A stretch of 32,000 bases of DNA from positions 60,001 to 92,000 of the forward strand of contig JBAZYK010000003.1 in NCBI GenBank assembly GCA_041659405.1, written 5' to 3'. Positions within the stretch are counted from its first letter, which is position 1; the number at the start of each line of letters is the position of its first letter. Source of the stretch: Candidatus Altimarinota bacterium (GTDB lineage Bacteria; Patescibacteriota; Gracilibacteria; UBA1369). Positions 680 to 27,788 of this stretch are shown in pieces. A model generated the notes under the pieces. The model did no database searches, was not told the DNA's origin, and saw only the letters and a list, made by a program, of their open reading frames with translations. Position numbers and translations under genes: made by a program.

Positions 680-706
680 AATTACTAATTACTAATTATT
701 AATTAA
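680..706 (+). repeat. Tandem heptamer leader (AATTACT AATTACT AATTATT AATTAA) upstream of rpsG
   Basis: Direct 7-nt periodicity ending 6 nt before the ATG. Confidence 0.85.
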
Positions 707-712
707 AAGGAA

Positions 713-1168
713 ATGGCACAAAAAAGATCACTCTACATTCCAGAAAATTCAAACCCTCTTCAAGAAAAGTTCATCAACTATCTCATGAAGGATGGCAAGA
801 AAAATACAGCGCGCAAAATTTTCAAAGATATGCTCGAAATTTTGATTGAAAAAGGCAACAAAGAACCAGGCAAAGTATTTGAAAAAGCAATTGAATCCGT
901 AAAACCTACTCTGGAAATTAAAGCAAAACGTATTGGTGGCGCCGTTTACCAGATTCCAATCGAAGTAAAACCGGGTCGTCAACTTATGCTTGCTTTCCGT
1001 TGGTTGCTAGAAGGTGCACGTGGCAAAAAAGGCTCTCCAATGGCTCAAAAGCTTGCTGATGAACTTCTTGCCGCTTCCAATGGTGAAGGTCTGGCAATCA
1101 AGAAGAAAGAAGACACAATGAAGATGGCTCAAGCCAACAAAGCCTTCGCTCACTACGCAAAATACTAA
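713..1168 (+). CDS. rpsG: 30S ribosomal protein S7
   Basis: …KFINYLMKDGKKNTARKIF…AFAHYAKY C-terminus, and it follows rpsL. Confidence 0.97.
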   Translation: MAQKRSLYIPENSNPLQEKFINYLMKDGKKNTARKIFKDMLEILIEKGNKEPGKVFEKAIESVKPTLEIKAKRIGGAVYQIPIEVKPGRQLMLAFRWLLEGARGKKGSPMAQKLADELLAASNGEGLAIKKKEDTMKMAQANKAFAHYAKY

Positions 1169-1214
1169 AAGAGATCATCCGGCCCACGGGCCAAAATCCT
1201 ACAAGAATTCAAAA

Positions 1215-1243
1215 GAGTCCCACTCAACCGGGGCTCTTTTTTT
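1215..1243 (+). terminator. Rho-independent terminator after rpsG
   Basis: Stem GAGTCCC/GGGGCTC (one G-U pair), 8-nt loop, followed by T7. Confidence 0.75.
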
Positions 1244-1293
1244 GTGACGATTCTTAGCTATAAAATCCAGACATTTCCAAAACGTACTTTTTC

Positions 1294-1313
1294 TTGATAC
1301 AATCAAGCAGAAA
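1294..1313 (+). promoter_or_regulatory. Extended -10 promoter candidate (TGATACAAT) within the repeated 20-mer TTGATACAATCAAGCAGAAA
   Basis: TGnTACAAT at 1295-1303. A near-identical 20-mer occurs at 3031-3050. Confidence 0.45.
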
Positions 1314-1374
1314 GCATCGCAAGACATTAGGTGTGTGAAAACAATTTGAATTTTTAAAACTTAACAAAATACAG

Positions 1375-1569
1375 ATGAATGACAAAAAAAGACAGGCAGA
1401 AGCCGAAATTGTAAAAGAAGCGGTTTCTAAATTGGATGGTCATCCAACTAAAGATGATGATGTAGAGGCAATAAGAAAAAAAATGGCAAGAGCAGCGGAA
1501 TTATCTCCAAGTTCTGCAATCAGAATGGGGCGGAATTTTTTAAAAGAAACTGATCCTAAAAAACATTAA
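1375..1569 (+). CDS. Hypothetical small protein (64 aa, charged)
   Basis: ORF only; it lies downstream of the candidate promoter. Confidence 0.4.
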   Translation: MNDKKRQAEAEIVKEAVSKLDGHPTKDDDVEAIRKKMARAAELSPSSAIRMGRNFLKETDPKKH

Positions 1570-1585
1570 AAAATCAAATTGTCAT

Positions 1586-1608
1586 CACACAACAGCGCGT
1601 AACCGGTT
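1586..1608 (+). repeat. Left half of a split hairpin repeat (CACACAAC arm + AACAGCGCGTAACCGGTT)
   Basis: Matches the left half of the intact element at 2950-2991. It shares an 18-nt direct repeat with 1928-1945. Confidence 0.6.
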
Positions 1609-1662
1609 CACCTGCGGGCTCACTCAAATTTTTTCTTAACCTTAATTTAGAAATAAAATATT

Positions 1663-1917
1663 ATGAACAAAGTAGAATTTATAGGCTTTGTAGCAGGGAT
1701 ACTGGTAGCAATTTCTGTACTACCACAAGTTATTAAGTCGTGGAAAACCAGATCCACAAAAGATGTTTCAATAATGTGGAGTATCATTAATCTGGCCGGG
1801 CAAATGTTATGGATAGTTTATGGGGCTTACATTGGGAGTAACGCACTTGTAATCATGAGTAGTATTACATTGATAATGAATGTTTCAATGGTAATTCTAA
1901 AACTGAAGTTCGGCTAA
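1663..1917 (+). CDS. SemiSWEET / PQ-loop family small membrane transporter (84 aa, 3 predicted TM)
   Basis: Three hydrophobic segments, a PQ motif in TM1 (VLPQVIKSWKTRS), and a size typical of bacterial SemiSWEETs. Confidence 0.7.
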   Translation: MNKVEFIGFVAGILVAISVLPQVIKSWKTRSTKDVSIMWSIINLAGQMLWIVYGAYIGSNALVIMSSITLIMNVSMVILKLKFG

Positions 1918-1927
1918 GAAAAAATTT

Positions 1928-1963
1928 AACAGCGCCCAACCGGTTAGGCTCGAACGTTGTGTG
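1928..1963 (+). repeat. Right half of a split hairpin repeat (AACAGCGCCCAACCGGTT … GTTGTGTG arm)
   Basis: Matches the right half of the intact element at 2950-2991. Confidence 0.6.
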
Positions 1964-2016
1964 AATTTCTTGTTTTTACTTACTTCAATTAATCACTATT
2001 TTTTTATTTTCGAAAT

Positions 2017-2187
2017 ATGAAAAATAATTCAAATTACATCTGGAGTATTTTAGGAATTTTTGAATTCTGCTTAATTGGATTCATTCATTATTACTATTCA
2101 AGTTCCACTCCAATGTTTTGGATAAGTCTATTAGCACTTATGATTATCTTCCTTCTTGTAGGCAATATTCTTACGAAAAAGAAGTAG
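2017..2187 (+). CDS. Hypothetical small membrane protein (56 aa; below the ORF-track cutoff)
   Basis: ATG at 2017 and TAG at 2185-2187; two hydrophobic stretches (ILGIFEFCLIGF, ISLLALMIIFLLVG). Confidence 0.3.
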   Translation: MKNNSNYIWSILGIFEFCLIGFIHYYYSSSTPMFWISLLALMIIFLLVGNILTKKK

Positions 2188-2293
2188 GATCATTAAAAAA
2201 AACGCAACAAAAACATCGCACACGCACGAACGTGGTTTGCCATGGCAGAACCGCAAGAACAGAAATTTTGGGGATCTTTTGGAGATCTAGAAT

Positions 2294-2322
2294 TTGACCA
2301 AATTAGCTATCGATGTTATAGT
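2294..2322 (+). promoter_or_regulatory. sigma70-like promoter (TTGACC-17 nt-TATAGT)
   Basis: Hexamers at 2294-2299 and 2317-2322, 30 nt upstream of the 2353 ATG. Confidence 0.55.
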
Positions 2323-2352
2323 TAGCTTAGTTTAATTCTTAAAATTATTACT

Positions 2353-2634
2353 ATGCCAGATGAAGAAAAAAGGAAAGAACCTGAAACCGTTGACGAAGCT
2401 GCTAAATGGGTGGTAGATCTTTTTGATCAAGCAAATACTGGTGGCGCTATTGAAAACATGGGAAGTAGAGGTCAAGAAGTAAGTAACGCAATAGATGATC
2501 TAAGACGAGCTTTAAATCGGGACGGTAAAAAAACCGTAATTGACGATCAACAAATGGTTGAAATTAAAGCAGATCGCAATAAAACCAAAGAACGGGTCAA
2601 AAATTTATATAAAAAAAACAAAGACCATTTCTAA
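2353..2634 (+). CDS. Hypothetical protein (93 aa)
   Basis: ORF downstream of a good promoter match. Confidence 0.45.
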   Translation: MPDEEKRKEPETVDEAAKWVVDLFDQANTGGAIENMGSRGQEVSNAIDDLRRALNRDGKKTVIDDQQMVEIKADRNKTKERVKNLYKKNKDHF

Positions 2635-2686
2635 AAAGCCGCTAAAATTTCTGTTTGCCTTCGGCGGTGGTTCTGCCACAGCACCC

Positions 2687-2926
2687 ATGCGAACGTTATA
2701 TAATGGAATTCCCCTTCATTCATCACTTATGGAAAAAAGAAGAATAATATTCGATATACCAAATGGTGTTACCCCAGAGGATATCGATAGAATATATTTT
2801 ACATTTGACAGTAAAATCGGATTTATAACTGATTGGGTTTCAAACACTTTGGAGGCCAATGTAGCTATTGATCTAATAGATGCATTTAAAAAGCAAGCTT
2901 CCAAAGCAGGTTTAAAAGAAAAATAA
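2687..2926 (+). CDS. Hypothetical protein (79 aa; start trimmed to the first ATG after the upstream stop)
   Basis: ORF 2540-2926 overlaps the previous ORF, so the internal ATG at 2687 was chosen. The start is uncertain. Confidence 0.3.
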   Translation: MRTLYNGIPLHSSLMEKRRIIFDIPNGVTPEDIDRIYFTFDSKIGFITDWVSNTLEANVAIDLIDAFKKQASKAGLKEK

Positions 2927-2949
2927 TTTGTCTGTGTCGAACAATTCAT

Positions 2950-2991
2950 CACACAACCATGTCCAACCGGTTCAGACGCGGACGTTGTGTG
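2950..2991 (+). repeat. Intact hairpin repeat CACACAAC-N7-AACCGGTT-N11-GTTGTGTG
   Basis: 8-bp perfect arms plus inner GTCC/GGAC pairs and a central palindrome AACCGGTT. Confidence 0.7.
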
Positions 2992-3030
2992 CCATACTGC
3001 TCGGAGACACTTCCCAAAACACGCCCTTTA

Positions 3031-3050
3031 TTGATACAATCAGGCAGAAA
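3031..3050 (+). promoter_or_regulatory. Extended -10 promoter candidate (TGATACAAT) within the repeated 20-mer TTGATACAATCAGGCAGAAA
   Basis: 19/20 identical to 1294-1313, and 26 nt upstream of the 3076 ATG. Confidence 0.45.
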
Positions 3051-3075
3051 CAGCTAAACACTTAATCAATTTTAT

Positions 3076-3444
3076 ATGCCAAAAATAATTATCGATGGCG
3101 CAGAATGTGCCACTTATGAATCTCCTGAACATGATGCACTTAGTGAAGATCTGGCAAAATTAACAGTTGAAGATTTAGAAAGGGAATTAGCCGCCAGAGA
3201 AAGGACGATGGCAGAAGAAACAGAAGCTGCATTATTTCCAGCATGGGTTTTAGGCCTAACAAGGCTTACAGGGCCAATTGATGATCACGATAGAAAGCGC
3301 GCACAAAGATTGCTCGAAGTAACGGAAACAAGAGAAGCACTTCAAAAAGTATTTCCAAAACCAATAAGCGAGGCAGACTGGGAAATAGCAAGGGGCCGCA
3401 GAATAGTTGCCGAAAAAATACTTGAAGGTGTGTTGATAGAGTAA
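3076..3444 (+). CDS. Hypothetical protein (122 aa, acidic)
   Basis: ORF with promoter context, closely followed by the MFS gene. Confidence 0.5.
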   Translation: MPKIIIDGAECATYESPEHDALSEDLAKLTVEDLERELAARERTMAEETEAALFPAWVLGLTRLTGPIDDHDRKRAQRLLEVTETREALQKVFPKPISEADWEIARGRRIVAEKILEGVLIE

Positions 3445-3460
3445 AAATTTACCAGTTCCT

Positions 3461-4693
3461 ATGCCCAAATCCCCCGCCCATCCAAATCCTCCCAAAGCCC
3501 CCCAAGCTCAAACCATTTTCGGCGTCCAAAAGCCAATTTTTTGGCTTGGGATTGTCAGTTTTCTTACCGACGTCAGCTCCGAAATGATTTTTTCGATCCT
3601 TTCGGTTTTCTTAACTGTAGTTCTGGGCGCGTCCACAGTCATACTTGGAATCATGGAAGGTCTGGCCGATTTTGCAGCTTCCTCCCTGGATTTCATTTCC
3701 GGTTACCTCTCCGACAAAACCGGCAAACGCAAAATCTTCGCGCTTTTTGGTTATGGCTTTTCAACTCTGGCCAAATGCCTGCTGGTTGTTGTCAGCAACG
3801 TCGCCGGAGTTTTTAGTTTTAGAGTGATTGAACGCCTTGGTAAATCCATTCGCGGAGCCCCACGTGACGCCCTTATTTCTTCCCTCAGCGAAAAATCAAA
3901 ACTGGGTTTTTCATTCGGTTTTCACAAAATGTTGGATAAAACCGGTGCCGTTTTAGGGCCATTTATAGCCTACTTCCTGCTTTCAGCCTTTGGCCAAAAT
4001 CCCCAAACCTTCCAACTGCTTTTCATAGTTGCCGTAATCCCCGCTCTTCTTTCCGTCCTGATTCTTGGCATATTCGTAAAAGATAAACCGGCTCCATCCC
4101 GCACACGCCAAAACATTTTCACACTGTACAAAGAATCAACTCCCGCCTTCAAAAAATATCTCAAAGTTGCCGGATTTTTCTCGATAGCCTACTTCAGTTT
4201 TGCCTTTCTGATGCTCAAAGCCTATCAAGTCGGCTTCGAGATCAAAGATATCGTTTTGCTTTACGCGCTCTTCAACATCGCCTTCACAATTATTTCCATT
4301 CCGGTCGGCAAAATCGGCGACAAAATCGGCCGCCACAAAATCATCCTCGCCGAATTTATCATTTACGCTTTGATGTGTTTGGGTTTTATTTTCGCCACAA
4401 CCAAACTCACCGTCGGACTGCTTTTTCTGGTTTACGGAATTTTCTACGCGATCGACGAAGGCCAGACCAAAGCCTTTATCAGCGACATCTCCAGTGAAGA
4501 AACCCGCGCCAGCTCAATCGGCCTTTATAATTTTATCACCGGCATGATTTATCTGCCCGCCTCATTAATCGCCGGATTTCTCTGGAGCCAATACGGTTCC
4601 GCCGCCACATTTATATTTGCCGGAGCTATCGCTTTAATCTCGGCCGTTGCCTTCAAATTTAGCGCATATCACGAAGCATCTTCACATCGCTAA
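3461..4693 (+). CDS. MFS-type transporter (410 aa, ~12 hydrophobic segments)
   Basis: Repeated TM segments and an MFS-like loop motif (GYLSDKTGKRK, PVGKIGDKIGRHK). Confidence 0.85.
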   Translation: MPKSPAHPNPPKAPQAQTIFGVQKPIFWLGIVSFLTDVSSEMIFSILSVFLTVVLGASTVILGIMEGLADFAASSLDFISGYLSDKTGKRKIFALFGYGFSTLAKCLLVVVSNVAGVFSFRVIERLGKSIRGAPRDALISSLSEKSKLGFSFGFHKMLDKTGAVLGPFIAYFLLSAFGQNPQTFQLLFIVAVIPALLSVLILGIFVKDKPAPSRTRQNIFTLYKESTPAFKKYLKVAGFFSIAYFSFAFLMLKAYQVGFEIKDIVLLYALFNIAFTIISIPVGKIGDKIGRHKIILAEFIIYALMCLGFIFATTKLTVGLLFLVYGIFYAIDEGQTKAFISDISSEETRASSIGLYNFITGMIYLPASLIAGFLWSQYGSAATFIFAGAIALISAVAFKFSAYHEASSHR

Positions 4694-5135
4694 TCACCTC
4701 TTCGGCGTGTTCAGCCGGCTTCACTTTTTCGTAATGCTTCACAATTACGCCTTTTGGATCAATCAAAAACGACTCGCGTGAAATCCCCATAAATTTCTTT
4801 CCCATAAAGTTTTTCTCCTTCCAGACTCCATATTCTTGAATCACCTTTTTATCGACATCGGACAGCAAAGGAAAATTAAGACGTTCCTTTAACCTGAATT
4901 TTTTATGAGACTCGGAACTATCCGCGCTAACCCCTATAACCTGCACATTCAAAGCCTTTAAATCATTCATGCGATTACGCAAACACTGCGCTTCTTCCGT
5001 ACACCCCGGCGTCATATCCTTTGGATAAAAATACAAAAGAATATATTGCCCCTTAAAATCCGCAAGCGAAAGATCCCCGCCATTTTCATCCGGCAAATTA
5101 ACCGCCGGCGCCTTTTTGTTTAACAGGTTCGACAT
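4659..5135 (-). CDS. bcp: Peroxiredoxin, Bcp/AhpC-TSA family
   Basis: FYPKDMTPGCTEEA active-site motif and ~158 aa. It is convergent with the MFS gene, and the 3' ends overlap by 35 nt. Confidence 0.9.
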   Translation of the reverse strand: MSNLLNKKAPAVNLPDENGGDLSLADFKGQYILLYFYPKDMTPGCTEEAQCLRNRMNDLKALNVQVIGVSADSSESHKKFRLKERLNFPLLSDVDKKVIQEYGVWKEKNFMGKKFMGISRESFLIDPKGVIVKHYEKVKPAEHAEEVISDVKMLRDMR

Positions 5136-5294
5136 ACAACAAAATTAAAAATTATTGATCAGTGCCCCCAATCATAGCACGAAAAACTAACATTAATAAA
5201 CGACTTTTGTAGATATAAAAGCTCATTTTTTACTTGCAATAATTAGAATAGATATAGTACCATTGCGACCATTTTAAATTTTAAATTTTCAATT

Positions 5295-5906
5295 ATGCGA
5301 AAAGGCACACCAGCGGAACAATTTCTTGAAACAGCTGATCGACATTTCAAGTTTGATGGTAAAAACCGGTTAATTACCCCTCGAGTACAAGCACAAATAT
5401 TGAAAATAGGGCAGGCTTGCCAAGACGTTTTAGCAGTACACGGACAAATATCTACAGCCGATTATATTAAGATTGCCGAAAATTACGGAAAAGTAGAAGG
5501 AAATACTGCTAAACAAAGCTTATCGGTAACTTTAAGCAAACCAAAAGTTTATGAGTTTAGAGATTTTCCGCGCGGGTTTGTAGAATTTAGACATTTACCC
5601 AAAGGCCACCACACATCGCCGCAATTTTTTACTGAACCCAGAATACCACAAATTACTGCTACTTTTGATGGCAAGCTTTGGTTTGTTACTCCTGATGGCA
5701 AAATCGAAACTCATGGTAAAAATGATCCCCCAAGAATTCCCGGAGAAGATGATGATATCGAAATATCTATCCCTACTAGACGTAATTGGACAGGCCTTGT
5801 TGCCCAACCTAGAACAGCCAACCAAGAATCCACGAGTCGTCATGACTGGAAAGAGGTTGTTCAAAGAGTTATAACCGCCAGCACTTTTTCAGCGGGGAAA
5901 AAATAA
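5295..5906 (+). CDS. Hypothetical protein (203 aa)
   Basis: ORF only; no motif recognised. Confidence 0.5.
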   Translation: MRKGTPAEQFLETADRHFKFDGKNRLITPRVQAQILKIGQACQDVLAVHGQISTADYIKIAENYGKVEGNTAKQSLSVTLSKPKVYEFRDFPRGFVEFRHLPKGHHTSPQFFTEPRIPQITATFDGKLWFVTPDGKIETHGKNDPPRIPGEDDDIEISIPTRRNWTGLVAQPRTANQESTSRHDWKEVVQRVITASTFSAGKK

Positions 5907-5928
5907 ACATAATTAAATTTTCCTTTCC

Positions 5929-5956
5929 TTGACTTCACATCAGGAATAAATATAAT
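5929..5956 (+). promoter_or_regulatory. sigma70-like promoter of fusA (TTGACT-16 nt-TATAAT)
   Basis: Near-consensus hexamers at 5929-5934 and 5951-5956. Confidence 0.65.
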
Positions 5957-5998
5957 ACAAAAGCCCTCAAATGAGAGGGAAATTTAAGTAAAACTCGT

Positions 5999-6074
5999 GC
6001 TCAGGTTGTGAATACCTACTGAGCACATCCGGGGTAGGGGCCCTGTGTGCGAAGGAGGTATTCACAACCTGAGC
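5999..6074 (+). repeat. Long-stem hairpin element, copy 1 (fusA 5' UTR)
   Basis: 19-bp perfect arms GCTCAGGTTGTGAATACCT/AGGTATTCACAACCTGAGC, an A.G mismatch, tandem G.A, inner stem GCACA/TGTGC, and loop TCCGGGGTAGGGGCCCTG at 6028-6045. Confidence 0.9.
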
Positions 6075-6078
6075 CAAC

Positions 6079-6099
6079 TAATTACTAATTCTTAATTAA
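6079..6099 (+). repeat. Tandem heptamer leader (TAATTAC TAATTCT TAATTAA) upstream of fusA
   Basis: 7-nt periodicity ending 7 nt before the ATG. Confidence 0.85.
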
Positions 6100-6106
6100 A
6101 TAAACC

Positions 6107-8222: not shown

Positions 8223-8247
8223 CCTTTCGCATTTCTTCAAAATGCAT

Positions 8248-8257: not shown

Positions 8258-8325
8258 TTGGCGGAAAGATCCGCCTAAGCACTTACTCTCAACTAATCTT
8301 AATTACTAATTCATAATTCTTTAAT

Positions 8326-9510: not shown

Positions 9511-9555
9511 GATCTCGCAAAGCGAGATCCGCGCCTGCCCCAAGCAGGCATAGCA
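9511..9555 (+). repeat. Two-hairpin module, copy a: GATCTCGC-AAA-GCGAGATC followed by CGCGCCTGCCCCAAGCAGGCATAGCA
   Basis: Begins directly after the tuf stop. The conserved second hairpin is GCCTGC/GCAGGC followed by ATAGCA. Confidence 0.8.
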
Positions 9556-9571
9556 AAAAAAATAACACAGT

Positions 9572-10816: not shown

Positions 10817-10837
10817 TAATTACTAATTATTAATTGA
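10817..10837 (+). repeat. Tandem heptamer leader (TAATTAC TAATTAT TAATTGA) upstream of rplD
   Basis: 7-nt periodicity ending 7 nt before the GTG start. Confidence 0.85.
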
Positions 10838-11588: not shown

Positions 11589-11635
11589 TCCCCTCCTGAA
11601 AAAATCATAATTCTACATCATAAATCCTAATTTAA

Positions 11636-12915: not shown

Positions 12916-12946
12916 AAACAACACTAATTATTAATTACTAACAGAC

Positions 12947-13273
12947 ATGGCACGAAGTACTAAAAAAGGACCATATATAGATGAAAAATTGATGAAGAAG
13001 ATCCAAACCGCCAACTCTAGTGGTCAGAAAAAGATCATTAAGACTTGGGCTCGCGGATCGATGATTGCGCCTGATTTTGTGGGTCATACTCTGGCAGTTC
13101 ACAATGGTAAACAACACATTCCGGTATTTGTTACTGAAAATATGGTTGGACACAGACTTGGTGAATTCTCTCCAACTCGTAAATTTAAAGGCCATGGTGG
13201 TAAATTGGCAAAGGCAGCTGAAGCTCCGGCAGCAAGTGCTCCAACAGCAGCAGCTCCAAAACCAAAAGCTTAA
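12947..13273 (+). CDS. rpsS: 30S ribosomal protein S19 (Ala/Pro-rich C-terminal tail)
   Basis: [12 protein letters not shown]… and …[23 protein letters not shown]. Confidence 0.97.
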
Positions 13274-13310
13274 TCTACAATTATAAATTCTAAATCCTGT
13301 TTATTAAATT

Positions 13311-13865: not shown

Positions 13866-13894
13866 ACCAATTATTAATCACTAAATCCAACCCC

Positions 13895-14547: not shown

Positions 14548-14575
14548 CTTGATTTATAAAGAAAAAAAAGTATAA
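14548..14575 (+). promoter_or_regulatory. Candidate internal promoter before rplP (TTGATT-16 nt-TATAAT)
   Basis: Hexamers at 14548-14553 and 14570-14575 in the 102-nt rpsC-rplP spacer. Confidence 0.4.
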
Positions 14576-14611
14576 TCTTCGGGCCAAAAACAATTAAATA
14601 AACACAACCGT

Positions 14612-14632
14612 TAACTACTAATTACTAATTGA
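14612..14632 (+). repeat. Tandem heptamer leader (TAACTAC TAATTAC TAATTGA) upstream of rplP
   Basis: 7-nt periodicity ending 6 nt before the ATG. Confidence 0.85.
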
Positions 14633-15556: not shown

Positions 15557-15574
15557 GCAAAGCGAACGAGTGTC

Positions 15575-15601
15575 CGCGCCTGCCACCAAGCAGGCATAGC
15601 A
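15575..15601 (+). repeat. Two-hairpin module, copy b: conserved part CGCGCCTGCCACCAAGCAGGCATAGCA
   Basis: Preceded by an irregular hairpin (GACAC…GTGTC, 15546-15574) that spans the rpsQ stop codon. Confidence 0.8.
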
Positions 15602-16016: not shown

Positions 16017-16017
16017 C

Positions 16018-16061
16018 AGGCAAGCACAGCTTGCCCGCGCCTGCCACTAAGCAGGCATAGC
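16018..16061 (+). repeat. Two-hairpin module, copy c: GGCAAGC-ACA-GCTTGCC followed by CGCGCCTGCCACTAAGCAGGCATAGCA
   Basis: Begins 2 nt after the rplN stop; same architecture as copy a. Confidence 0.8.
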
Positions 16062-17068: not shown

Positions 17069-17095
17069 CAATTACTATTACTAATTATTAATTGA
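17069..17095 (+). repeat. Tandem heptamer leader (CAATTAC TATTAC TAATTAT TAATTGA) upstream of rpsN
   Basis: 7-nt periodicity (one 6-nt unit) ending 6 nt before the ATG. Confidence 0.85.
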
Positions 17096-17326: not shown

Positions 17327-17420
17327 GAAATTTGAGCACAGCTCAAATTTCCTTCCGGCCTGAGCGAAGCGAAGAAACGCCGGAATAAAAATTAACATTC
17401 TGCCCTAAGCAGGCATAGCA
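17327..17420 (+). repeat. Hairpin series after rpsN: an 11-bp stem (17327-17351), TTCCGGC…GCCGGAA (17353-17385), and two-hairpin-module conserved part copy d, CTGCCCTAAGCAGGCATAGCA (17400-17420)
   Basis: Inverted repeats read directly. Copy d lacks the CGCGC prefix. Confidence 0.7.
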
Positions 17421-17483
17421 ATAAAGAATTAAAGGAAATTAAATTTATCAATAAACCTAAGTCATAAATCCTAAATTAAAATT

Positions 17484-17931: not shown

Positions 17932-17983
17932 CACAATATCCAGCCAATTACACATTCAACTATTAATTACTAATTGAACCAAA

Positions 17984-19024: not shown

Positions 19025-19059
19025 CAATTACTCATTATTAATTACTAATTACTAATTGA
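19025..19059 (+). repeat. Tandem heptamer leader, 5 units (CAATTAC TCATTAT TAATTAC TAATTAC TAATTGA), upstream of rpsE
   Basis: 7-nt periodicity ending 1 nt before the ATG. Confidence 0.9.
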
Positions 19060-19060: not shown

Positions 19061-19804
19061 ATGGCAAAACCTCCATTTAACAGAAAAGGCCAAGCTCCAA
19101 TGCGCGAAGTAAAAGAGTTCGAAGAAGAGGTAATACAAATCGATCGTGTAACTCGCGTAGTTAAAGGAGGCCGCAGACTTCGTTTCCGCGCTACCGTTGT
19201 AATTGGTAACCGCAAAGGCAAAGTTGGCGTTGGTATCGGTAAATCAACTGAAGTTCAAGGCGCAATCAAAAAAGCTATCGCTCAAGCAAAGAAATCCCTG
19301 ATCGAAGTGCCAATGATTGGTCAAACCATTCCTCATCGTGTTGAGATGAAATTCAAGAGCGCTAAACTTATTATTATGCCAGCTCGTCCAGGTACTGGTA
19401 TCATTGCCGGTGGACCACTACGCAAGGTAATTGAACTTTCCGGAGTTAAAGATATTTTGAGCAAATGTTTAGGTGCAAAAAATCGTTTGAATAACAGCCA
19501 GGCGGCCATCAACGCTTTAGCGGAACTTAGAACAATGCCTTGGTTAAAGAAAAAAGTTGCTACTCCTGTTGCAGTCGCTCCAGGCGCACATGTCGCTCCA
19601 GTTGCACACGCTGTTCCAGGGACACACGTAAACACAGCTGCACACACAACTCCTGCACACGCCGCTCCGGTTGCACGCACTGCTCCAGTCGCACACACAA
19701 CTCCGGCACACGCTGCTCCAACTACACATCACGCTCCAGCTCCAGCTGCACATCCAGCTCCTAAAGCTCCTGTAGCTGATCCAGCTAAGAAAACTCAAGA
19801 GTAA
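19061..19804 (+). CDS. rpsE: 30S ribosomal protein S5 with a ~80-aa His/Ala/Pro/Thr repeat C-terminal extension
   Basis: …IDRVTRVVKGGRRLRFRATVVIGN… core. The tail starts around aa 165. Confidence 0.95.
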   Translation: MAKPPFNRKGQAPMREVKEFEEEVIQIDRVTRVVKGGRRLRFRATVVIGNRKGKVGVGIGKSTEVQGAIKKAIAQAKKSLIEVPMIGQTIPHRVEMKFKSAKLIIMPARPGTGIIAGGPLRKVIELSGVKDILSKCLGAKNRLNNSQAAINALAELRTMPWLKKKVATPVAVAPGAHVAPVAHAVPGTHVNTAAHTTPAHAAPVARTAPVAHTTPAHAAPTTHHAPAPAAHPAPKAPVADPAKKTQE

Positions 19805-19840
19805 TAAAATCTATTTAATCTAATGTAACGCATAATTCCA

Positions 19841-20326: not shown

Positions 20327-20343
20327 AACAGGATTACGCCTCG

Positions 20344-20381
20344 CAAATCATTTCAAATCCTGCCTCCTAAATCCTAAATCC
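20344..20381 (+). repeat. Heptamer-type leader, second flavour (CAAATCA…CAAATCC TGCCTCC TAAATCC TAAATCC), upstream of secY
   Basis: 7-nt periodicity, followed by A7 and then the ATG. Confidence 0.7.
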
Positions 20382-20388
20382 AAAAAAA

Positions 20389-21687: not shown

Positions 21688-21689
21688 TA

Positions 21690-21771: not shown

Positions 21772-21791
21772 ATATCATTAACTCAATTAAG

Positions 21792-22430: not shown

Positions 22431-22436
22431 TTTCTA

Positions 22437-23213
22437 ATGAAGATTTGGAAAGAAGGCAACCTGCGTATTGGCATTAAAGATTCACAGGAAATTCAAGCCA
22501 TGCGTGAAGGAGGCAAAATTTTAGGAATAATTTTACATGAACTTGAACAAATGGTGGTTCCCGGAATCACTCTTTTGGAGCTTGATAAAAAAGCCGCAGA
22601 GATGATGGCAAATCATCATGTTAAGCCATCTTTTTTAGGATATTACGGCTTTCCAAATGTACTTTGCATCAATGTAAATGATGTAGTCGTTCACGGAATC
22701 CCGGATAAAACCGAGTTACATGAAGGTGACATTGTAACAATCGATTGCGGCGTAATTCATAAGGATTTTCAGACCGATTCAGCAATTCAAAAAGGAGTTG
22801 GCAAAATCACTCCGGAACTCACCAAATTTTTAAACACCGCCCAAAAAGCTTTGGACAAAGCAATTGAAACTGCAAAACCGGGAATCCGCATTCGTACTAT
22901 TAGCGGAGTTATTCAGGATATTGTCGAAAAAAACGGTTATAGTGTTGTACGGGATTTAGTTGGTCATGGCATCGGACACAAAATGCACGAAGATCCACCG
23001 GTTCCAAATTTTCGTGATGAAGCTGGCCCAATGCTGCAAACCGGCATGACAATTGCCATTGAACCGATCATCTGCATGGGCAATCGCAAAGTTAAAACCT
23101 TGCGTGATGGCTGGACCATGGTAAGCGCAGACGGATCATATGCAACGCAGGTTGAGCACACCATTGCCATTACCCAAAAAGGAGCTGAAATTTTAACCAA
23201 AAGACCGGAATAA
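22437..23213 (+). CDS. map: Methionine aminopeptidase type I
   Basis: …VVHGIP…DIVTIDCG…GHGIGHKMHEDP…EPI…EHT… metal-ligand pattern. Confidence 0.96.
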   Translation: MKIWKEGNLRIGIKDSQEIQAMREGGKILGIILHELEQMVVPGITLLELDKKAAEMMANHHVKPSFLGYYGFPNVLCINVNDVVVHGIPDKTELHEGDIVTIDCGVIHKDFQTDSAIQKGVGKITPELTKFLNTAQKALDKAIETAKPGIRIRTISGVIQDIVEKNGYSVVRDLVGHGIGHKMHEDPPVPNFRDEAGPMLQTGMTIAIEPIICMGNRKVKTLRDGWTMVSADGSYATQVEHTIAITQKGAEILTKRPE

Positions 23214-23257
23214 AGAACAAGGCAAAAGGAACCTTCACAATCACTACAAAAAGCCCA

Positions 23258-23296
23258 AAAAATTCCCTTGCATTGTTAAAAAATGTCATGTAAAAT
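23258..23296 (+). promoter_or_regulatory. sigma70-like promoter of infA (AAAAATTCCC-TTGCAT-17 nt-TAAAAT)
   Basis: TTGCAT at 23268-23273 and TAAAAT at 23291-23296. The 18-mer is identical to the tuf promoter. Confidence 0.6.
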
Positions 23297-23416
23297 CCTA
23301 ACGCTCTTTTGAATTTTTTTAGAGAGAAAACAGCATACCCAAGGCACGAAACGTAACGGAGTGTCGCACTAAAAAGGAATCGCAAAAGCGAAACCAATCA
23401 TGCCTAATCTGTACTT

Positions 23417-23734
23417 ATGGCCAAAGAGGTAATCGAACTGATGGGTGTAGTGGTAGAGGCGCTTCCAAACGCCACCTTCCGCGTTAAACTCACGGACGAA
23501 AGGTACCCAAATCATATCGTACTCGCCCACGTTTCAGGCAGAATGAGAATCAATTATATTCGAATTCTACCGGGCGATAAGGTCACTATTGAATTGACAC
23601 CATACGATTTGAACAAAGGAAGAATCATTTTCCGTCACAAGGAAGGTTCAAGAATGGAACAAACACCAAGTGTCACTGCTGAAACGAAAGTTGAACCAAG
23701 TCCCGAAGCTGTAAAAGAGCCTGAAAAAAACTAA
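23417..23734 (+). CDS. infA: Translation initiation factor IF-1 with a ~30-aa C-terminal extension
   Basis: …[17 protein letters not shown]…[19 protein letters not shown]…. Confidence 0.95.
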
Positions 23735-23754
23735 ATATCGTTAATCCAACCATC

Positions 23755-23868
23755 ATGAAAGTTCGCTCATCTGTAAAAAAAATCTGTGATAAATGCAAAG
23801 TAATCCGCAGAAAAAACGTGGTTCGCGTGATCTGTATAACTAAAAAACATAAGCAACGACAGGGTTAA
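23755..23868 (+). CDS. rpmJ: 50S ribosomal protein L36 (37 aa; not in the ORF track)
   Basis: [37 protein letters not shown], translated by hand. Confidence 0.93.
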
Positions 23869-23885
23869 GAACTATAAAGGTAACT

Positions 23886-23965
23886 GTGTTCAGTTGTGGA
23901 ATGTTGGCTGAACATATCCGGGGCAGGGGCCCTGTGTGTGAAGACAATATCCCAGAACTGAACAC
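23886..23965 (+). repeat. Long-stem hairpin element, copy 6 (rpmJ|rpsM), partly decayed
   Basis: Same arms as copy 4 but with G.G and A.C mismatches. Loop variant TCCGGGGCAGGGGCCCTG at 23917-23934. Confidence 0.85.
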
Positions 23966-23968
23966 AAC

Positions 23969-23989
23969 TAATTACTAATTATTAATCAT
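23969..23989 (+). repeat. Tandem heptamer leader (TAATTAC TAATTAT TAATCAT) upstream of rpsM
   Basis: 7-nt periodicity ending 5 nt before the ATG. Confidence 0.85.
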
Positions 23990-23994
23990 AAAAA

Positions 23995-24378
23995 ATGGCA
24001 ACAGTAGCTCGTATCTCAGGCGTTACTCTCCCTCAACAAAAAAGAGTTGAAATCGGTTTGATGGCTATTTATGGGGTAGGAAGAAGCCTTAGCAAGAAAA
24101 TTGTAAAAGAGGCCAACGTTAACCCTGATACTAGAGTTAAAGACTTAACTGAAGAAGAAGTCAGCCGCATTCGTGAAATTATCTCCAAGACATCAACAGA
24201 AGGTGATCTTCGTCGTAAAATTCAAATGGACATCAAGCGTCTTCAGGAAATCGGTTCATACCGTGGTTTCCGTCATCGCAAGGGTTTACCTGTTCGCGGT
24301 CAACGCACACGTTCCAATGCCCGCACCAGAAAAGGCAAGAAGAAGACAGTGGCTAACAAGAAGGTTGTTACTAAGTAG
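23995..24378 (+). CDS. rpsM: 30S ribosomal protein S13
   Basis: …[25 protein letters not shown]…. Confidence 0.97.
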
Positions 24379-24404
24379 TAACAAATATTAAAATCAAAGT
24401 TTGT

Positions 24405-24482
24405 GTTCAGATTGTGGAATATTGGCTGAACACAGCCGGGGTAGGGGCCCTGTGTGTGAAGACAATATTCCACAATCTGAAC
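24405..24482 (+). repeat. Long-stem hairpin element, copy 7 (rpsM|rpsK)
   Basis: Arms GTTCAGATTGTGGAATATTG/CAATATTCCACAATCTGAAC, a G.A mismatch and tandem G.A; loop GCCGGGGTAGGGGCCCTG at 24435-24452. Confidence 0.9.
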
Positions 24483-24507
24483 CTACTAATTACTAATTAA
24501 CATAACC

Positions 24508-25002
24508 ATGGCAGACGAGAAGACCATAGACACAAAATCAGAGAAAGCAGAAAGCGCAAAAGCTTCCGAGGGTAAAGCTGAAACTAAAAAAACTGGTAAG
24601 CCGGAAGTAAAAGCTGTTAAATCCACCAAAGGCAAGAAAAAGGCAAAGCGTCGCCTTTTACAAGAAGGTAAAGCTTATATTCAGGCCAGTTATAACAACA
24701 CCATTGTTACAATTACAGATATGAATGGTGAAGTTATCGCTTGGAGCAGCGCCGGTTCAAATGGTTTTAAGGGTGCTAAAAAAGCGACTCCTTATGCAGC
24801 CCAGGTTTCTGCTGAAAATGCCATCACAAAAGCTAAAGTTTATGGTTTGGAACGAATTCATGTATTTATCAAAGGAGTAGGAACAGGCCGTGAACAATCC
24901 ATCCGTGGTTTACAAGCAGGTGGAGTGAATATTGAGTCAATAACTGATCTAACACCGGTTACACACAATGGTTGCCGTCCAAGAAAATCCCGAAGAGTAT
25001 AA
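24508..25002 (+). CDS. rpsK: 30S ribosomal protein S11 with a ~35-aa Lys-rich N-terminal extension
   Basis: …GKAYIQASYNNTIVTITDMNGEVIAWSSAG…. Confidence 0.96.
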   Translation: MADEKTIDTKSEKAESAKASEGKAETKKTGKPEVKAVKSTKGKKKAKRRLLQEGKAYIQASYNNTIVTITDMNGEVIAWSSAGSNGFKGAKKATPYAAQVSAENAITKAKVYGLERIHVFIKGVGTGREQSIRGLQAGGVNIESITDLTPVTHNGCRPRKSRRV

Positions 25003-25013
25003 CATTATCCCAC

Positions 25014-25048
25014 CAATCACTCATTACTAATTATTAATTACTAATTGA
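25014..25048 (+). repeat. Tandem heptamer leader, 5 units (CAATCAC TCATTAC TAATTAT TAATTAC TAATTGA), upstream of rpsD
   Basis: 7-nt periodicity ending 6 nt before the ATG. Confidence 0.9.
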
Positions 25049-25054
25049 AAAAAA

Positions 25055-25666
25055 ATGTCTAGATATACTGGTCCAAAATGTCGTTTATGCCGCCGCGAAG
25101 GAGTTTCCTTATGCGGGAAGGAAAAATGCGCTCTAAAAAAGAAGAATTATATTCCAGGTATGCATGGCCCAAAAGGCAGTTTTGCAAAGAAATCTGAATA
25201 TGCTCGTCAACTTCGTGAAAAACAAAAGTTGAAGAGACTTTTTGGTATTACGGAACGCCAACTTTCCAACTATTTTGAAAAAGCCGGAAAAATGAAAGAT
25301 ATCACCGGTGATGCACTTTTAAAACTACTTGAATATCGTCTTGATAACGTAATTTATCGCTCCGGTATTGCTAAAACAAGAAACCAGGCTCGCCAAATGG
25401 TAAATCATGGATTATTCAAGGTGAATAACATCAAGATTAATATTCCTTCCCTTCAAATGAAGGCTGGCGACAAATTCGAAGCAATTGCCCGCATTAAAAA
25501 ATCAAAACTTTTTGCTGAAGTTGAAAAGCAAAAATATGCTCCTGCTAAATGGATCAAGGTTGATTACAAAACTTTAATGGGCGAAGTAACTCGTCCAATC
25601 GAAAAGGAAGAACTTGAAAGTATCATCCAAAGCAACTTAATCGTTGAGTTCTACTCCAAAGCGTAA
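25055..25666 (+). CDS. rpsD: 30S ribosomal protein S4 (Cys-rich N-terminal Zn-type)
   Basis: MSRYTGPKCRLCRREG… N-terminus and an S4 domain pattern. Confidence 0.97.
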   Translation: MSRYTGPKCRLCRREGVSLCGKEKCALKKKNYIPGMHGPKGSFAKKSEYARQLREKQKLKRLFGITERQLSNYFEKAGKMKDITGDALLKLLEYRLDNVIYRSGIAKTRNQARQMVNHGLFKVNNIKINIPSLQMKAGDKFEAIARIKKSKLFAEVEKQKYAPAKWIKVDYKTLMGEVTRPIEKEELESIIQSNLIVEFYSKA

Positions 25667-25691
25667 ATTTTAATTAAAAATTATAAAAACT

Positions 25692-25773
25692 GTGTTCGGA
25701 TTTCTGTACGTTTTCTGAGCACATCCGGGGTAGGGGCCCTGTGTGCGAAGGAAATGTACAGAAATCTGGACAC
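25692..25773 (+). repeat. Long-stem hairpin element, copy 8 (rpsD|rpoA)
   Basis: Arms GTGTTCGGATTTCTGTACGTTTT/GAAATGTACAGAAATCTGGACAC with four G-U/U-G pairs on the + strand, plus tandem G.A; loop at 25724-25741. Confidence 0.9.
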
Positions 25774-25777
25774 TCAA

Positions 25778-25801
25778 CCATTACTAATTACTAATTACTA
25801 A
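25778..25801 (+). repeat. Tandem heptamer leader (CCATTAC TAATTAC TAATTAC TAA) upstream of rpoA
   Basis: 7-nt periodicity ending 13 nt before the ATG. Confidence 0.85.
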
Positions 25802-25814
25802 CCCCCTTTCTAGA

Positions 25815-26792
25815 ATGCATCAGATTCAAGAAGAAATCGGCATCCCAAAGATTAAAACTGAAAGAATCAGTAATAATCATGCGATTTTTACGGTTAGTCC
25901 ACTTCCACCCGGATATGGAATGACAGTTGGTAATTCTTTCCGCCGAGTACTTTTATCTTCTTTGCCTGGTTCATGTGTCACCGGGATCAAAATCGATGGT
26001 ATAAGTCATGAATATTCAACAATTAAAGGAGTAAAAGAAAGTGTATTGGATATCACTTTAAATTTGAAACTTTTACATATCAGAAAAACCACAAAAGAAC
26101 CTTCCATTTGCACATTACATATCACAAAAGAAGGTCCGGTTTATGCCAAAGATATCAAATGCCCAAGTGATGTTGAAGTTTTAAATGGCGATCAATATAT
26201 TACAACCGTTGAAAAGGGCTGCAAACTCAATGCGGAACTTCGTGTTGAAAAAGGTGTTGGTTATATTCCGGCTCATTACCGTGTAAAAGAAGAAGGCGCT
26301 GACCCTGCAATGATTGTTATTGATGCGATCTACTCACCGGTTAAAAAGGTTCGTTATGATGTGGAAGCAACTCGTGTAGGTCAAATGACCAACCTTGATA
26401 AATTGAGCATGGAAGTAATGACAGATGGCTCAATCACGCCAGAAGATGCTGTAAAATTCTCTTCCAATATTCTTCAATCTTACTTCAATCTTTTCAACCA
26501 GGAAAATGCCATGGTTGAAGCTGATTACATGTCAGATTTCAAGAAGATCGTTGAAAAAGAAAAAGCTGAAGAGAAAAACAAGCCGGCTCAGGAAAGTTAT
26601 ACTCCTATAGAAATCCTTGGTTTCTCACCAAGAACACTCAATGCTTTGATCAATGGTGGCATTGGTTCTATTGAACAATTATCAAAATGTACCGAAAGTA
26701 AATTGACTAATCTCCGTGGTTTTGGTAAAAAGGCACTCACAGAGGTAAAAAATGCCCTCAAAGCCAAAAATATGACTCTCTCTGAGGAATAA
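25815..26792 (+). CDS. rpoA: DNA-directed RNA polymerase subunit alpha
   Basis: …PLPPGYGMTVGNSFRRVLLSSLPG… N-terminal domain, a C-terminal HhH-like …LGFSPRTLNAL…, and gene order. Confidence 0.96.
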   Translation: MHQIQEEIGIPKIKTERISNNHAIFTVSPLPPGYGMTVGNSFRRVLLSSLPGSCVTGIKIDGISHEYSTIKGVKESVLDITLNLKLLHIRKTTKEPSICTLHITKEGPVYAKDIKCPSDVEVLNGDQYITTVEKGCKLNAELRVEKGVGYIPAHYRVKEEGADPAMIVIDAIYSPVKKVRYDVEATRVGQMTNLDKLSMEVMTDGSITPEDAVKFSSNILQSYFNLFNQENAMVEADYMSDFKKIVEKEKAEEKNKPAQESYTPIEILGFSPRTLNALINGGIGSIEQLSKCTESKLTNLRGFGKKALTEVKNALKAKNMTLSEE

Positions 26793-26806
26793 TAAGAAAT
26801 TACTGT

Positions 26807-26884
26807 GTTTGGATTGTGGAATGTTGGCTGAACACATCCGGGGTAGGGGCCCTGTGTGTGAAGACAATATTCCACAATCCAAAC
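26807..26884 (+). repeat. Long-stem hairpin element, copy 9 (rpoA|rplQ)
   Basis: Arms GTTTGGATTGTGGAATGTTG/CAATATTCCACAATCCAAAC. There is a compensatory CA>TG / TG>CA change relative to copies 4 and 7. Loop at 26837-26854. Confidence 0.9.
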
Positions 26885-26914
26885 TGAAAAATATTAATCA
26901 TTAATTAAACTAAA

Positions 26915-27268
26915 GTGAGACATCAGAATTCACAGCCGAAACTTAGCCGTCCACGAGATGCACGTCGTTTGCTCCTTGGAAACCTGGCAACTTCTCTCAT
27001 CACTCATGAGAAAATCCAGACAACCAGAGCAAAGGCAAAAGCTGTTCAACCAATCGTTGACCGCCTAATCACAATTGCTAAAACCAAGGACAAGATGATT
27101 GCAATCCGTGAACTTAACCGCACTCTTCAAAGCGAACTCAGTTCAAAAAAAGTTATGGAAGAACTAACAAAGCGCTATGCGGAAAGACCAAGTGGTTTTA
27201 CCAGAATTACTCAAATTAAATTCCGTCCCGGTGACGCCGCGTTAATCGTCCAAATCGAATTGGTGTAA
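26915..27268 (+). CDS. rplQ: 50S ribosomal protein L17 (GTG start)
   Basis: MRHQNSQPKLSRPRDARRLLLGNL… N-terminus. Confidence 0.95.
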   Translation: MRHQNSQPKLSRPRDARRLLLGNLATSLITHEKIQTTRAKAKAVQPIVDRLITIAKTKDKMIAIRELNRTLQSELSSKKVMEELTKRYAERPSGFTRITQIKFRPGDAALIVQIELV

Positions 27269-27293
27269 CAGCTTTGCTACGCAAAGCCAAAAC

Positions 27294-27321
27294 TCATTGC
27301 TTATTACTAATTATTAATTAC
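27294..27321 (+). repeat. Tandem heptamer leader (TCATTGC TTATTAC TAATTAT TAATTAC) upstream of rplM
   Basis: 7-nt periodicity ending 6 nt before GTG 27328. It is preceded by mini-hairpin GCTTTGC-TAC-GCAAAGC at 27271-27287. Confidence 0.85.
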
Positions 27322-27327
27322 TCAGTC

Positions 27328-27759
27328 GTGAAAACTTATTCTCCAAAAATTGAAGACATCAAGCGCCAATGGTTTGTAGCTGATGTAAAAGGCAAAACAC
27401 TCGGCAAGGTTGCCACTAAAGTTGCCGATATCATCCGTGGAAAAAATAAACCAACTTATTCTCCTCATCTTGATTGTGGTGATTTTGTAGTCATCGTGAA
27501 CGTAGAGGAAATCAAATTAACAGGTAATAAACTTAAAGATAAAGTTTATAATCATCATACCCGCTACGCAAATGGTTTACGTTCAACTACTCCGGATGAA
27601 TTAATCCGCGTTGGTAAGGCGGAACGAATTCTTTTCCATGCAGTTGCCGGAATGATTCCTCAATCCAAACTCAAGAAGGACATTTTAAGAAAACTAAAGA
27701 TTTTTACCGGAGCAGAACACAAACATTCCGCCCAGGAACCTAAAGTTTTAGATCTATAA
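27328..27759 (+). CDS. rplM: 50S ribosomal protein L13 (GTG start; the ORF-track start 27274 is rejected)
   Basis: (M)KTYSPKIEDIKRQWFVADVKGKTLG… matches the canonical L13 N-terminus. The upstream part of the ORF translates the heptamer leader. Confidence 0.93.
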   Translation: MKTYSPKIEDIKRQWFVADVKGKTLGKVATKVADIIRGKNKPTYSPHLDCGDFVVIVNVEEIKLTGNKLKDKVYNHHTRYANGLRSTTPDELIRVGKAERILFHAVAGMIPQSKLKKDILRKLKIFTGAEHKHSAQEPKVLDL

Positions 27760-27760
27760 A

Positions 27761-27788
27761 AAATTGCTAATTACTAATTGTTAATTGA
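27761..27788 (+). repeat. Tandem heptamer leader (AAATTGC TAATTAC TAATTGT TAATTGA) upstream of rpsI
   Basis: 7-nt periodicity ending 8 nt before ATG 27797. Confidence 0.85.

Follow-up and report, generated by a model that had tools for sequence, protein, structure and literature searches.

The 32,000-nucleotide (nt) window analysed here (positions 60,001 to 92,000 of contig C3 of genome G000, numbered from its first letter) carries on its plus strand a rpsL-rpsG / fusA-tuf / S10-spc-alpha ribosomal-protein cluster, in which most start codons are preceded by head-to-tail runs of a 7-nt unit. These heptad leaders are real and lie far beyond chance. The arrays are tandem copies of a single TAA motif that is found genome-wide. 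Our preferred reading, to which we give a probability of roughly 0.55, is that this Peregrinibacteria genome starts translation without Shine-Dalgarno (SD) sequences and that the arrays are multi-copy docking or standby sites which raise initiation.

A 7-nt ladder of at least two units was found immediately 5' of the start codon in 28 of the 37 genes of the window, with at least three units in 15 of the 37. The arrays consist of two to five units, each with a core TAATT followed by two variable bases, and runs such as CTAATTA-CTAATTA-TTAATTG end a few bases before the start codon of nearly every gene in the cluster. Among the linker bases at positions 6-7, AC (25), AT (18), TA (9) and CT (8) lead the counts and G occurs almost never; TAAATCC is a minor unit type. 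In the complete assembly (1.51 Mb, 21 contigs, 40% G+C, 98.5% complete), TAATT-N2-TAATT (spacing 7) occurs 186 times compared to 12-30 times at each of the remaining spacings between 5 and 19, the exception being spacing 14 (76 occurrences), which is a harmonic of the 7-nt period. In the 50 nt upstream of the 1193 genes based on open reading frames (ORFs) that make up our genome-wide gene set, 5-mers recur at lag 7 in 357 cases compared to 109 +/- 15 in shuffles, and lags 14 and 21 are also elevated.

Long arrays, counted as at least three AATT units at 7-nt spacing, number 52 in the genome. None of the 52 is found within an ORF, all being intergenic in a genome of which ORFs occupy 86%. For forty of them, a start codon follows within 25 nt on the array's G-poor strand, and 46 adjoin a start codon when either strand is counted. 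Exact lag-7 runs of at least 9 nt are few, which indicates few exact recent duplications. The kept TAATT core, the variable positions 6-7, the scarcity of exact duplications and the intergenic position on the start-pointing strand together argue for selection at the RNA level rather than fresh slippage. Expectation-maximization motif discovery with random seeds and a low-score Tandem Repeats Finder run gave output too noisy to be used.

The arrays also show a higher-order, 14-nt alternation between AT and AC spacers. The order of the unit variants ACTCATT / NCTAATT / ATTAATT / ACTAATT is shared by purA, purB, rpsD and rpsE in this genome, and in the congener L006 near-identical leader strings of ~30 nt were observed at the unlinked rplQ, rplM and rpsD. 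Strings shared by unlinked genes would reflect either the copying of arrays between loci or a longer site of ~28 nt under selection.

As an initial annotation of this stretch had noted, SD sequences are mostly absent from the leaders: GGAG was found at -22..-4 in only 18 of the 1193 genes (1.5%), and order-wide the SD is essentially unused. The 16S ribosomal RNA (rRNA; G000:C2:89093-90593) has a canonical 3' end, GGATCACCTCCTTT, in which the anti-SD CCUCC is retained. The prfB gene (G000:C9:57803-58858) is one open frame in which the usual programmed +1 frameshift was not found, and it thus gives no positive sign of anti-SD use. The almost complete lack of G in the leaders, also reported earlier, was observed genome-wide, as G drops to 7-10% at -14..-1 and is nearly absent from the arrays.

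The 16S trailer directly after the anti-SD reads CCTCCTTTCTA(A)GGAG, with the GGAG able to pair with CUCC (loci L081-L137 compared). Conservation of this GGAG extends through the order and to most of a sample from the whole phylum; the remaining spacer is not conserved, and the feature provides no explanation of SD non-use. Masking of the anti-SD by the GGAG 6-7 nt past it (CCUCCUUUCUAGGAG) was considered and dropped, as the same feature, usually CTAAGGAG, occurs throughout the phylum sample and appears to be a general pre-rRNA feature.

The place of the SD is taken by a positioned TAA. TAATT and CTAAT are 5.4-fold and 5.6-fold enriched in -30..-1, which puts them among the most enriched 5-mers, and a TAA starting at -15..-12 precedes 551 of the 1193 genes (46%). 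TAATT in the genome-wide leaders peaks at -13, -20/-21 and -28/-29. In the window, 30 of the 37 genes have a TAA at -15..-12, including rpsL, rpsH, secY and rplW, whose leaders had been set apart as a second flavour of the repeat. Since the second-flavour leaders share this TAA, the two flavours form one phased TAA ladder, and the proposed division gives way to one signal with a phased TAA at ~-13 and more copies at -20, -27 and often -6. The positional TAA also precedes operon-internal genes with spacers of 5-60 nt, and the stop codon of the upstream gene accounts for only 35 of the 551.

The sequence around the motif is that of an open initiation region. ATG occurs in -30..-1 at 0.0081 compared to 0.0147 expected from local base composition, i.e., about half, and A is raised at -3 (0.58), -6 and -11..-14 in orthologous leaders. 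Initiation regions (-30..+15) have a predicted fold of -2.95 kcal/mol, and those of the array genes -1.75, compared to -5.75 for mid-ORF windows. The predicted fold of the rpsM-rpsK spacer leaves the array wholly unpaired, 3' of a -50 kcal/mol hairpin. Arrays as hairpin arms were rejected, as they are predicted unpaired and only one inverted array pair was seen, on contig 19. The suggestion of an unstructured landing pad for SD-independent initiation fits a site that stands in the SD's place, is G-poor and is near structure-free in these predicted folds; the S1 protein would be its putative reader.

The arrays are unevenly distributed among genes. The translation cluster is ~22-fold enriched in arrays (Fisher p = 2.5e-11), and outside the window arrays of at least three units precede the genes for PurL, PurH, PurB, PurE, PurC, PurA, PurF, a GlnA-like protein, Frr and HPF (NCBIfam). 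Further carriers, which we take by eye from their sequences to be RpoC, GroEL, GlmS, GlyRS and FtsA, are joined by presumed lactate/malate dehydrogenase-like and H+-pyrophosphatase-like proteins. The purine genes with their own arrays of at least three units are purL and purH on contig C1, purA, purB, purE and purC on C2, and purF on C5. The adjacent purB-purE-purC of one operon each have their own array, and pur genes form a striking share of the long arrays outside the translation cluster. Altogether ~40-50 genes bear arrays, many of them presumed to be highly expressed.

RpoA relatives in public genomes are all labelled Candidatus Peregrinibacteria / Peribacteria / Gracilibacteria, which places the host in the candidate phyla radiation (CPR); the closest one is the congener L006 with 91% identity. 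Orthologous starts were anchored by tblastn in 79 related loci, which are not statistically independent. At all Peregrinibacteria loci the leaders are poor in G (~5%) and free of SD-like sites, which are present in the Saccharibacteria and Berkelbacteria outgroups. In the literature, Peribacter riflensis appears among the SD-scarce species. A TAA at -16..-12 was found in 603 of 980 orthologous leaders (~62%), whereas neither TAG nor TGA peaks at any position in the leaders. Strong tandem repeats, defined by a self-identity of at least 12/14, occur at lag 7 in 3.5% of 945 orthologous leaders compared to 0.1-0.2% at lags 5, 6, 8 and 9. The TAA signal is shared across the clade, as is the preference for a period of exactly 7 nt; the arrays are not.

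The units themselves are lineage-specific: CTAATTA is found here and in L006, CCTACAT/CCTAAAT in L073, TGATAAT in L053, CCATTGA in L033, CTACTAA in L046 and TAATTCG in L004. Related lineages also have heptads without any stop codon (CCTACAT, CCCTGTA and CTACTCC). That each related lineage has a different unit argues against a single repeat having spread horizontally. Arrays occur at rpsM, rpsD, rplQ, rpsE and rplF also in lineages with unrelated units. The heptamers are present in orthologous leaders of L006, which has the same unit, and other lineages have other 7-nt units or none. In 151 genomes of the order scanned for four TAAs at 7-nt spacing, such ladders number ~0-2 in most and dozens to ~190 in a scattered few; the reversed pattern used for comparison is itself a 7-nt pattern and thus no control for the period. 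The array-rich genomes have units of their own, namely TAATTCG, CCTAACA, TAAGAAC, TAAAGAC and TAATAGC. Even in L006 the copy number differs at most genes (rplE 0 vs 3, rpsM 2 vs 0 and rpsK 2 vs 4).

In the mechanism that we favour, start codons would be marked by a G-poor, AUG-poor and near structure-free leader with a UAA, usually UAAUU, whose U lies at -15 to -12. In the array-bearing genes, many of them presumed to be busy and including most of the window's ribosomal-protein cluster, rpoC, fusA, tuf, groEL, frr, hpf and seven pur genes, the motif recurs in tandem with a 7-nt period, with 2-5 copies per array. The arrays would be transcribed within a 5' untranslated region (UTR) or an intercistronic spacer and, as RNA, would offer the 30S subunit several copies of a site for docking or standby, most plausibly via a four-domain bS1-like protein together with the platform. 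Such a site would be unable to fold, would hold no false start codon and would raise initiation. We infer a role of the ribosome or S1 as reader of the motif and a rise of translation with copy number, and any reason for the period of 7 belongs to the same conditional part of the proposal. A bS1-like protein with four S1 domains was found here and in 142 of the 151 genomes of the order; bS1 presence was rejected as a discriminator of array genomes, being near-universal and thus uninformative.

A bolder version, which we offer tentatively and consider unlikely, treats the 7-nt period as a physical ruler of SD-independent initiation in which each heptad would engage one OB-fold (S1) domain of the bS1 bound to the ribosome, or an equivalent contact repeated on the 30S platform. 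The 2-5 units would then form a multivalent docking site whose copy number sets the translation rate, and the units of different lineages would be 'dialects'. If true, this would explain the heptamers beside start codons in Beggiatoaceae, Cyanobacteria, Bacteroidetes and CPR.

Several observations weigh against the docking-site reading. No part of the evidence explains the period of 7, and the leader of the bS1 gene itself has no array. The patchy occurrence of arrays means that multi-copy leaders are dispensable for an SD-less lifestyle, and the copy-number shifts between congeners could equally reflect drift. The array genes are taken as highly expressed from gene function only, and the starts of the 1193 genes come from a crude ORF caller, so the genome-wide percentages are approximate.

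The arrays could instead be largely non-adaptive, slippage-prone or copy-pasted microsatellite-like filler, with only the -13 motif at work and the extra copies as passengers; such filler would build up because SD-less leaders tolerate any unstructured, G-free sequence that has a TAA near -13. Their patchy, lineage-specific distribution across the order with units differing by lineage speaks for this account, as does the gain and loss of copies between congeners whose proteins are 80-97% identical. The near-identical ~30-nt leaders at three unlinked congener genes and the variant order common to purA, purB, rpsD and rpsE likewise point to copying. We nevertheless find this account doubtful, because the TAATT core persists next to variable positions 6-7, exact duplications of recent date are scarce, the arrays are concentrated on translation and purine genes, and rpsM, rpsD, rplQ, rpsE and rplF are array-bearing across lineages with unrelated units; in addition, slippage alone should also give periods of 5, 6, 8 and 9, and period 7 alone is seen. 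A dedicated trans-acting regulator (protein or small RNA) that reads the heptads post-transcriptionally in a translation/purine/chaperone regulon, as MacGregor suggested for the TAACTGA repeats, is in our judgement rather improbable. It would account for the lineage-specific core, the fixed arrangement of a 5-nt core and a 2-nt spacer, the coherent gene set with seven pur genes and the 14-nt alternation of AT and AC spacers. However, CsrA, Hfq and Rho were not found in the 98.5%-complete genome and are rejected as readers, and a cold-shock protein, one of which is present here, does not track the arrays (6 of 19 array-rich genomes compared to 66 of 132 others; p = 0.15). Stand-alone antisense arrays able to encode a small RNA are not evident, and no candidate gene for the regulator was found.

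The initial annotation proposed a universal stop buffer in which three units put a TAA in all frames and end ribosomes arriving in any of them. Arrays of at least three TAA units do cover all frames, and 31 of 38 arrays follow a co-directional gene, 16 of them filling a spacer of 19-60 nt. This role has nevertheless become very unlikely: hardly any positional TAAs are upstream stop codons (35/551), TAG and TGA have no peak, 7 of the 38 arrays lie behind divergent genes where no ribosomes arrive from upstream, two-unit arrays are common, and relatives have stop-free heptads. A 4-nt period would also give all-frame stops more cheaply, and only 7 nt is enriched. We give hardly any weight to the TAA/TAATT at -13 as the -10 box of a promoter for leaderless or short-leader messenger RNA (the 'group C' of GeneMarkS-2), even though the hexamer at -13/-12 sits where such a box would, since the TAnnnT signature is missing (T at the sixth position only 0.32) and the motif is also found inside operons, where the spacers measure 5-60 nt. 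Arrays have good -35/-10 pairs 55-150 nt upstream of them, such as the two listed in Table 1, and no array is promoter-like in score; a TTGCAT-17-TAATAT, read from the sequence, also lies upstream of the tuf array. The position of the fusA promoter implies that the hairpin and heptads of this gene lie in its 5' UTR. Finally, pairing of the heptads with rRNA as a substitute SD, through the 16S 3' tail or another segment, is scarcely credible. An AUAUUAG located 14 nt 3' of CCUCC could pair with CUAAU, and a 9-nt match exists between TTAATTGAA and the apex of 16S helix 6. The 16S tail GGATCACCTCCTTTCTAGGAG is, however, conserved in relatives with different heptads, and the spacer beyond it is not conserved. 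Helix 6 is variable, the sole TAATTCG-array genome examined (G031) is short there and has no complement in the stretch shown, and control units give equally many 6-mer matches; the match of TTAATTGAA to helix 6 was judged a coincidence. Of the two features that the initial annotation proposed to look for at the 16S 3' end, the anti-SD is present, and a leader motif complementary to the tail and co-varying with it was not found.

Although the heptamers had been taken for a signal not previously described, start-proximal heptamer repeats are on record. TAACTGA direct repeats in marine Beggiatoaceae lie mostly just upstream of start codons, seldom together with an SD; they also occur inside ribosomal-protein operons and in Cyanobacteria and Bacteroidetes, with S1, Csp and CsrA suggested as proteins that bind them (MacGregor 2015, PMC4679880). 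Heptamer repeats near start codons are also known from Nostoc PCC 7120 (bioRxiv 10.1101/2022.06.06.494920). The Beggiatoaceae repeats resemble those described here in being tandem 7-nt repeats (2-6 copies there, 2-5 here) of which a genome holds from dozens to more than 100 sets. Nearly all of these are intergenic and point to a start codon, stopping a few nt short of it in leaders without SD. In both cases ribosomal-protein operons (fusA, S4, L3) are involved, the unit contains TAA and a translational role is suspected. The unit is TAACTGA there and TAATTNN here, so that the element is of the same kind without being the same repeat. Beggiatoa has an SD at ~25% of its genes, whereas this CPR host has essentially none, and the arrays here are multiples of a genome-wide motif anchored at ~-13.

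The single TAA motif matches the non-SD motif of GeneMarkS-2 'group B', which in Flavobacterium is TAAAAA with a spacer of ~7 nt (10.1101/193490), and the initiation regions of F. johnsoniae, where, according to ribosome profiling and reporters, initiation benefits from an A at -12/-13, -6 and -3 in leaders that are A-rich at -14..-11, low in structure and depleted of AUG (PMC6847099). Group B Bacteroidetes and the genome studied here both keep the anti-SD with the SD unused, have a positioned T-A-A... motif from ~-13 with raised A-3 and A-6, have G-poor, unstructured and AUG-depleted leaders, and have the motif ahead of the first gene of an operon as well as its internal genes. Where this genome has TAA(TT), the Bacteroidetes have an A-run, and 7-nt tandem iteration is no described feature of Bacteroidetes initiation regions in the literature compared. 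The proteins bS21, bS18 and bS6 hide the anti-SD of Bacteroidia, whereas only a sub-threshold match to bS21 was found here (23 bits, cut-off 27; a 69-residue ORF at C2:107037-107150), and Peregrinibacteria are reportedly often without bS21 (PMC9297842). The reason for SD non-use may therefore differ from that in Bacteroidia. No description of heptamer leaders in CPR was found in the literature searched. The element is new in its unit, host and anchoring, its kind having already been described.

The leaders of Escherichia coli include A/U-rich, S1-dependent translational enhancers (Boni, Komarova and colleagues). Like the arrays, these are unstructured A/U-rich RNA 5' of the start and are thought to recruit the 30S subunit via S1, independently of the SD. 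Unlike the arrays, they have no fixed period or core and act alongside an SD; binding of S1 to the heptads is putative.

In large parts of the bacterial tree, among them Bacteroidetes, Cyanobacteria and much of the CPR, the recognition of starts without an SD still calls for an explanation. The genomes compared here provide a natural series, with one positioned TAA at about half of the genes, 2-5 phased copies at the presumably busiest ones, and other 7-nt units or none in sister lineages. This series makes the role of copy number and 7-nt spacing directly testable and links the heptamers of other phyla to the non-SD motif. Gene finders that assume an SD mis-set starts in such genomes, as seen here for rplM and rpsI.

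The leaders of the window are listed in Table 1. Those named in the initial annotation have the positions and sequences it gave (e.g., rpsG 680-704, tuf 8300-8316, rpsS 12925-12941, rplF 17964-17973, rpsK 24487-24496 and rplQ 26895-26904), and their gene identities were confirmed by Pfam, the confirmed products being S12, S7, EF-G, EF-Tu, L4, S19, S3, L6, S5, S13, S11, S4, L17, L13 and S9. The named arrays were said to end 1-13 nt before the start; that of rpoA ends 13-18 nt before it. That most of them end with TAATTGA was overstated, as this is true of 7 of the 17 named leaders.

Table 1. Heptad leaders and promoter-like sequences in the window (SF, leader of the former second flavour).
Feature	Position	Strand	Units and remarks	Evidence
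rpsL leader	187..215	+	SF (TAAATC/TAATCC units); TAA at -33, -27, -19, -13, -6	
rpsG leader	680..704	+	AATTACTAATTACTAATTATTAATT; 4 units AATTAC TAATTAC TAATTAT TAATT; ends 8 nt before ATG at 713	Pfam
Leader of unknown 203-residue gene (start 5295)	5277..5294	+	3 units AATTTTA AATTTTC AATT	
Best sigma-70-like promoter in scanned stretch	5929..5956	+	TTGACT-16-TATAAT; 11/12; ~150 nt upstream of fusA	
fusA leader	6079..6097	+	3 units TAATTAC TAATTCT TAATT	Pfam
tuf leader	8294..8318 (8300-8316 also given)	+	TAATCT TAATTAC TAATTCA TAATT	Pfam
rplD leader	10817..10835	+	TAATTAC TAATTAT TAATTGA; GTG start 10845	Pfam
rplW leader	11608..11630	+	SF (TAATTCTACATCATAAATCCTAA)	
rpsS leader	12925..12941	+	TAATTAT TAATTAC TAA	Pfam
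rplV leader	13272..13295	+	SF (AATCTAC AATTATA AATTCTA AAT)	
rpsC leader	13869..13884	+	AATTAT TAATCAC TAA	Pfam
Promoter-like sequence	14549-14576	+	TTGATT-16-TATAAT; upstream of rplP array	
rplP leader	14612..14630	+	TAACTAC TAATTAC TAATTGA	
rpsN leader	17082..17093	+	TAATTAT TAATTGA	
rpsH leader	17458..17474	+	SF; TAAGTCA TAAATCC TAA	
rplF leader	17964..17975	+	TAATTAC TAATTGA	Pfam
rpsE leader	19039..19057	+	TAATTAC TAATTAC TAATTGA; occupies almost all of 41-nt spacer	Pfam
secY leader	20368..20377	+	SF; TAAATCC TAAATCC	
rpsM leader	23969..23985	+	TAATTAC TAATTAT TAATCA	Pfam
rpsK leader	24487..24498	+	TAATTAC TAATTAA; predicted fully unpaired, 3' of long hairpin	Pfam
rpsD leader	25028..25046	+	TAATTAT TAATTAC TAATTGA	Pfam
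rpoA leader	25785..25801	+	TAATTAC TAATTAC TAA; no array at congener's rpoA	
rplQ leader	26895..26906	+	TAATCAT TAATTAA; GTG start 26915	Pfam
rplM leader	27308..27319	+	TAATTAT TAATTAC; start is GTG 27328, not TTG 27274	Pfam
rpsI leader	27762..27786	+	AATTGC TAATTAC TAATTGT TAATT; ATG start 27797	Pfam

Two repeated hairpins were observed beside the leaders. The first is a long-hairpin repeat of ~80 nt found between about 5990 and 26890 (e.g., 24405-24482). Its 18-nt apex, CCGGGGTAGGGGCCCTGT, is invariant, and its lower stems vary between copies yet stay paired. It occupies nine spacers of the cluster, usually just 5' of a heptad leader, with one further, inverted copy between secY and adk; the rpsM-rpsK spacer, which contains a copy, folds at -50 kcal/mol (z = -8). 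There are 27-28 copies in this genome, one in the congener and none in 39 other relatives, and no Rfam family matched the repeat. The second is a short hairpin, GCCTGCC(N3-4)AAGCAGGCATAGCA, located at 9511-9560, 15557-15600, 16017-16060 and 17390-17420, where tuf, rpsQ, rplN and rpsN have just ended. It has no U-tract, is often preceded by another small GC hairpin and might serve as a terminator-like element or in processing.

In this genome the str operon is interrupted by ~4.9 kb between rpsG and fusA (1169-5906). This gap contains a 2.3-kb stretch with short ORFs only (1169-3460), an MFS transporter gene (3461-4693), an AhpC/TSA peroxiredoxin gene on the minus strand (4659-5135) and the gene for the 203-residue protein without a Pfam match (5295-5906). 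Two ribosomal proteins of the cluster have lineage-specific extensions. The uS5 protein (rpsE, 19061-19804) has 247 residues, with its Pfam domains ending at residue 159, and the 164-residue uS11 protein (rpsK, 24508-25002) has a Lys/Ala/Glu-rich N-terminal extension of ~53 residues before its S11 domain.

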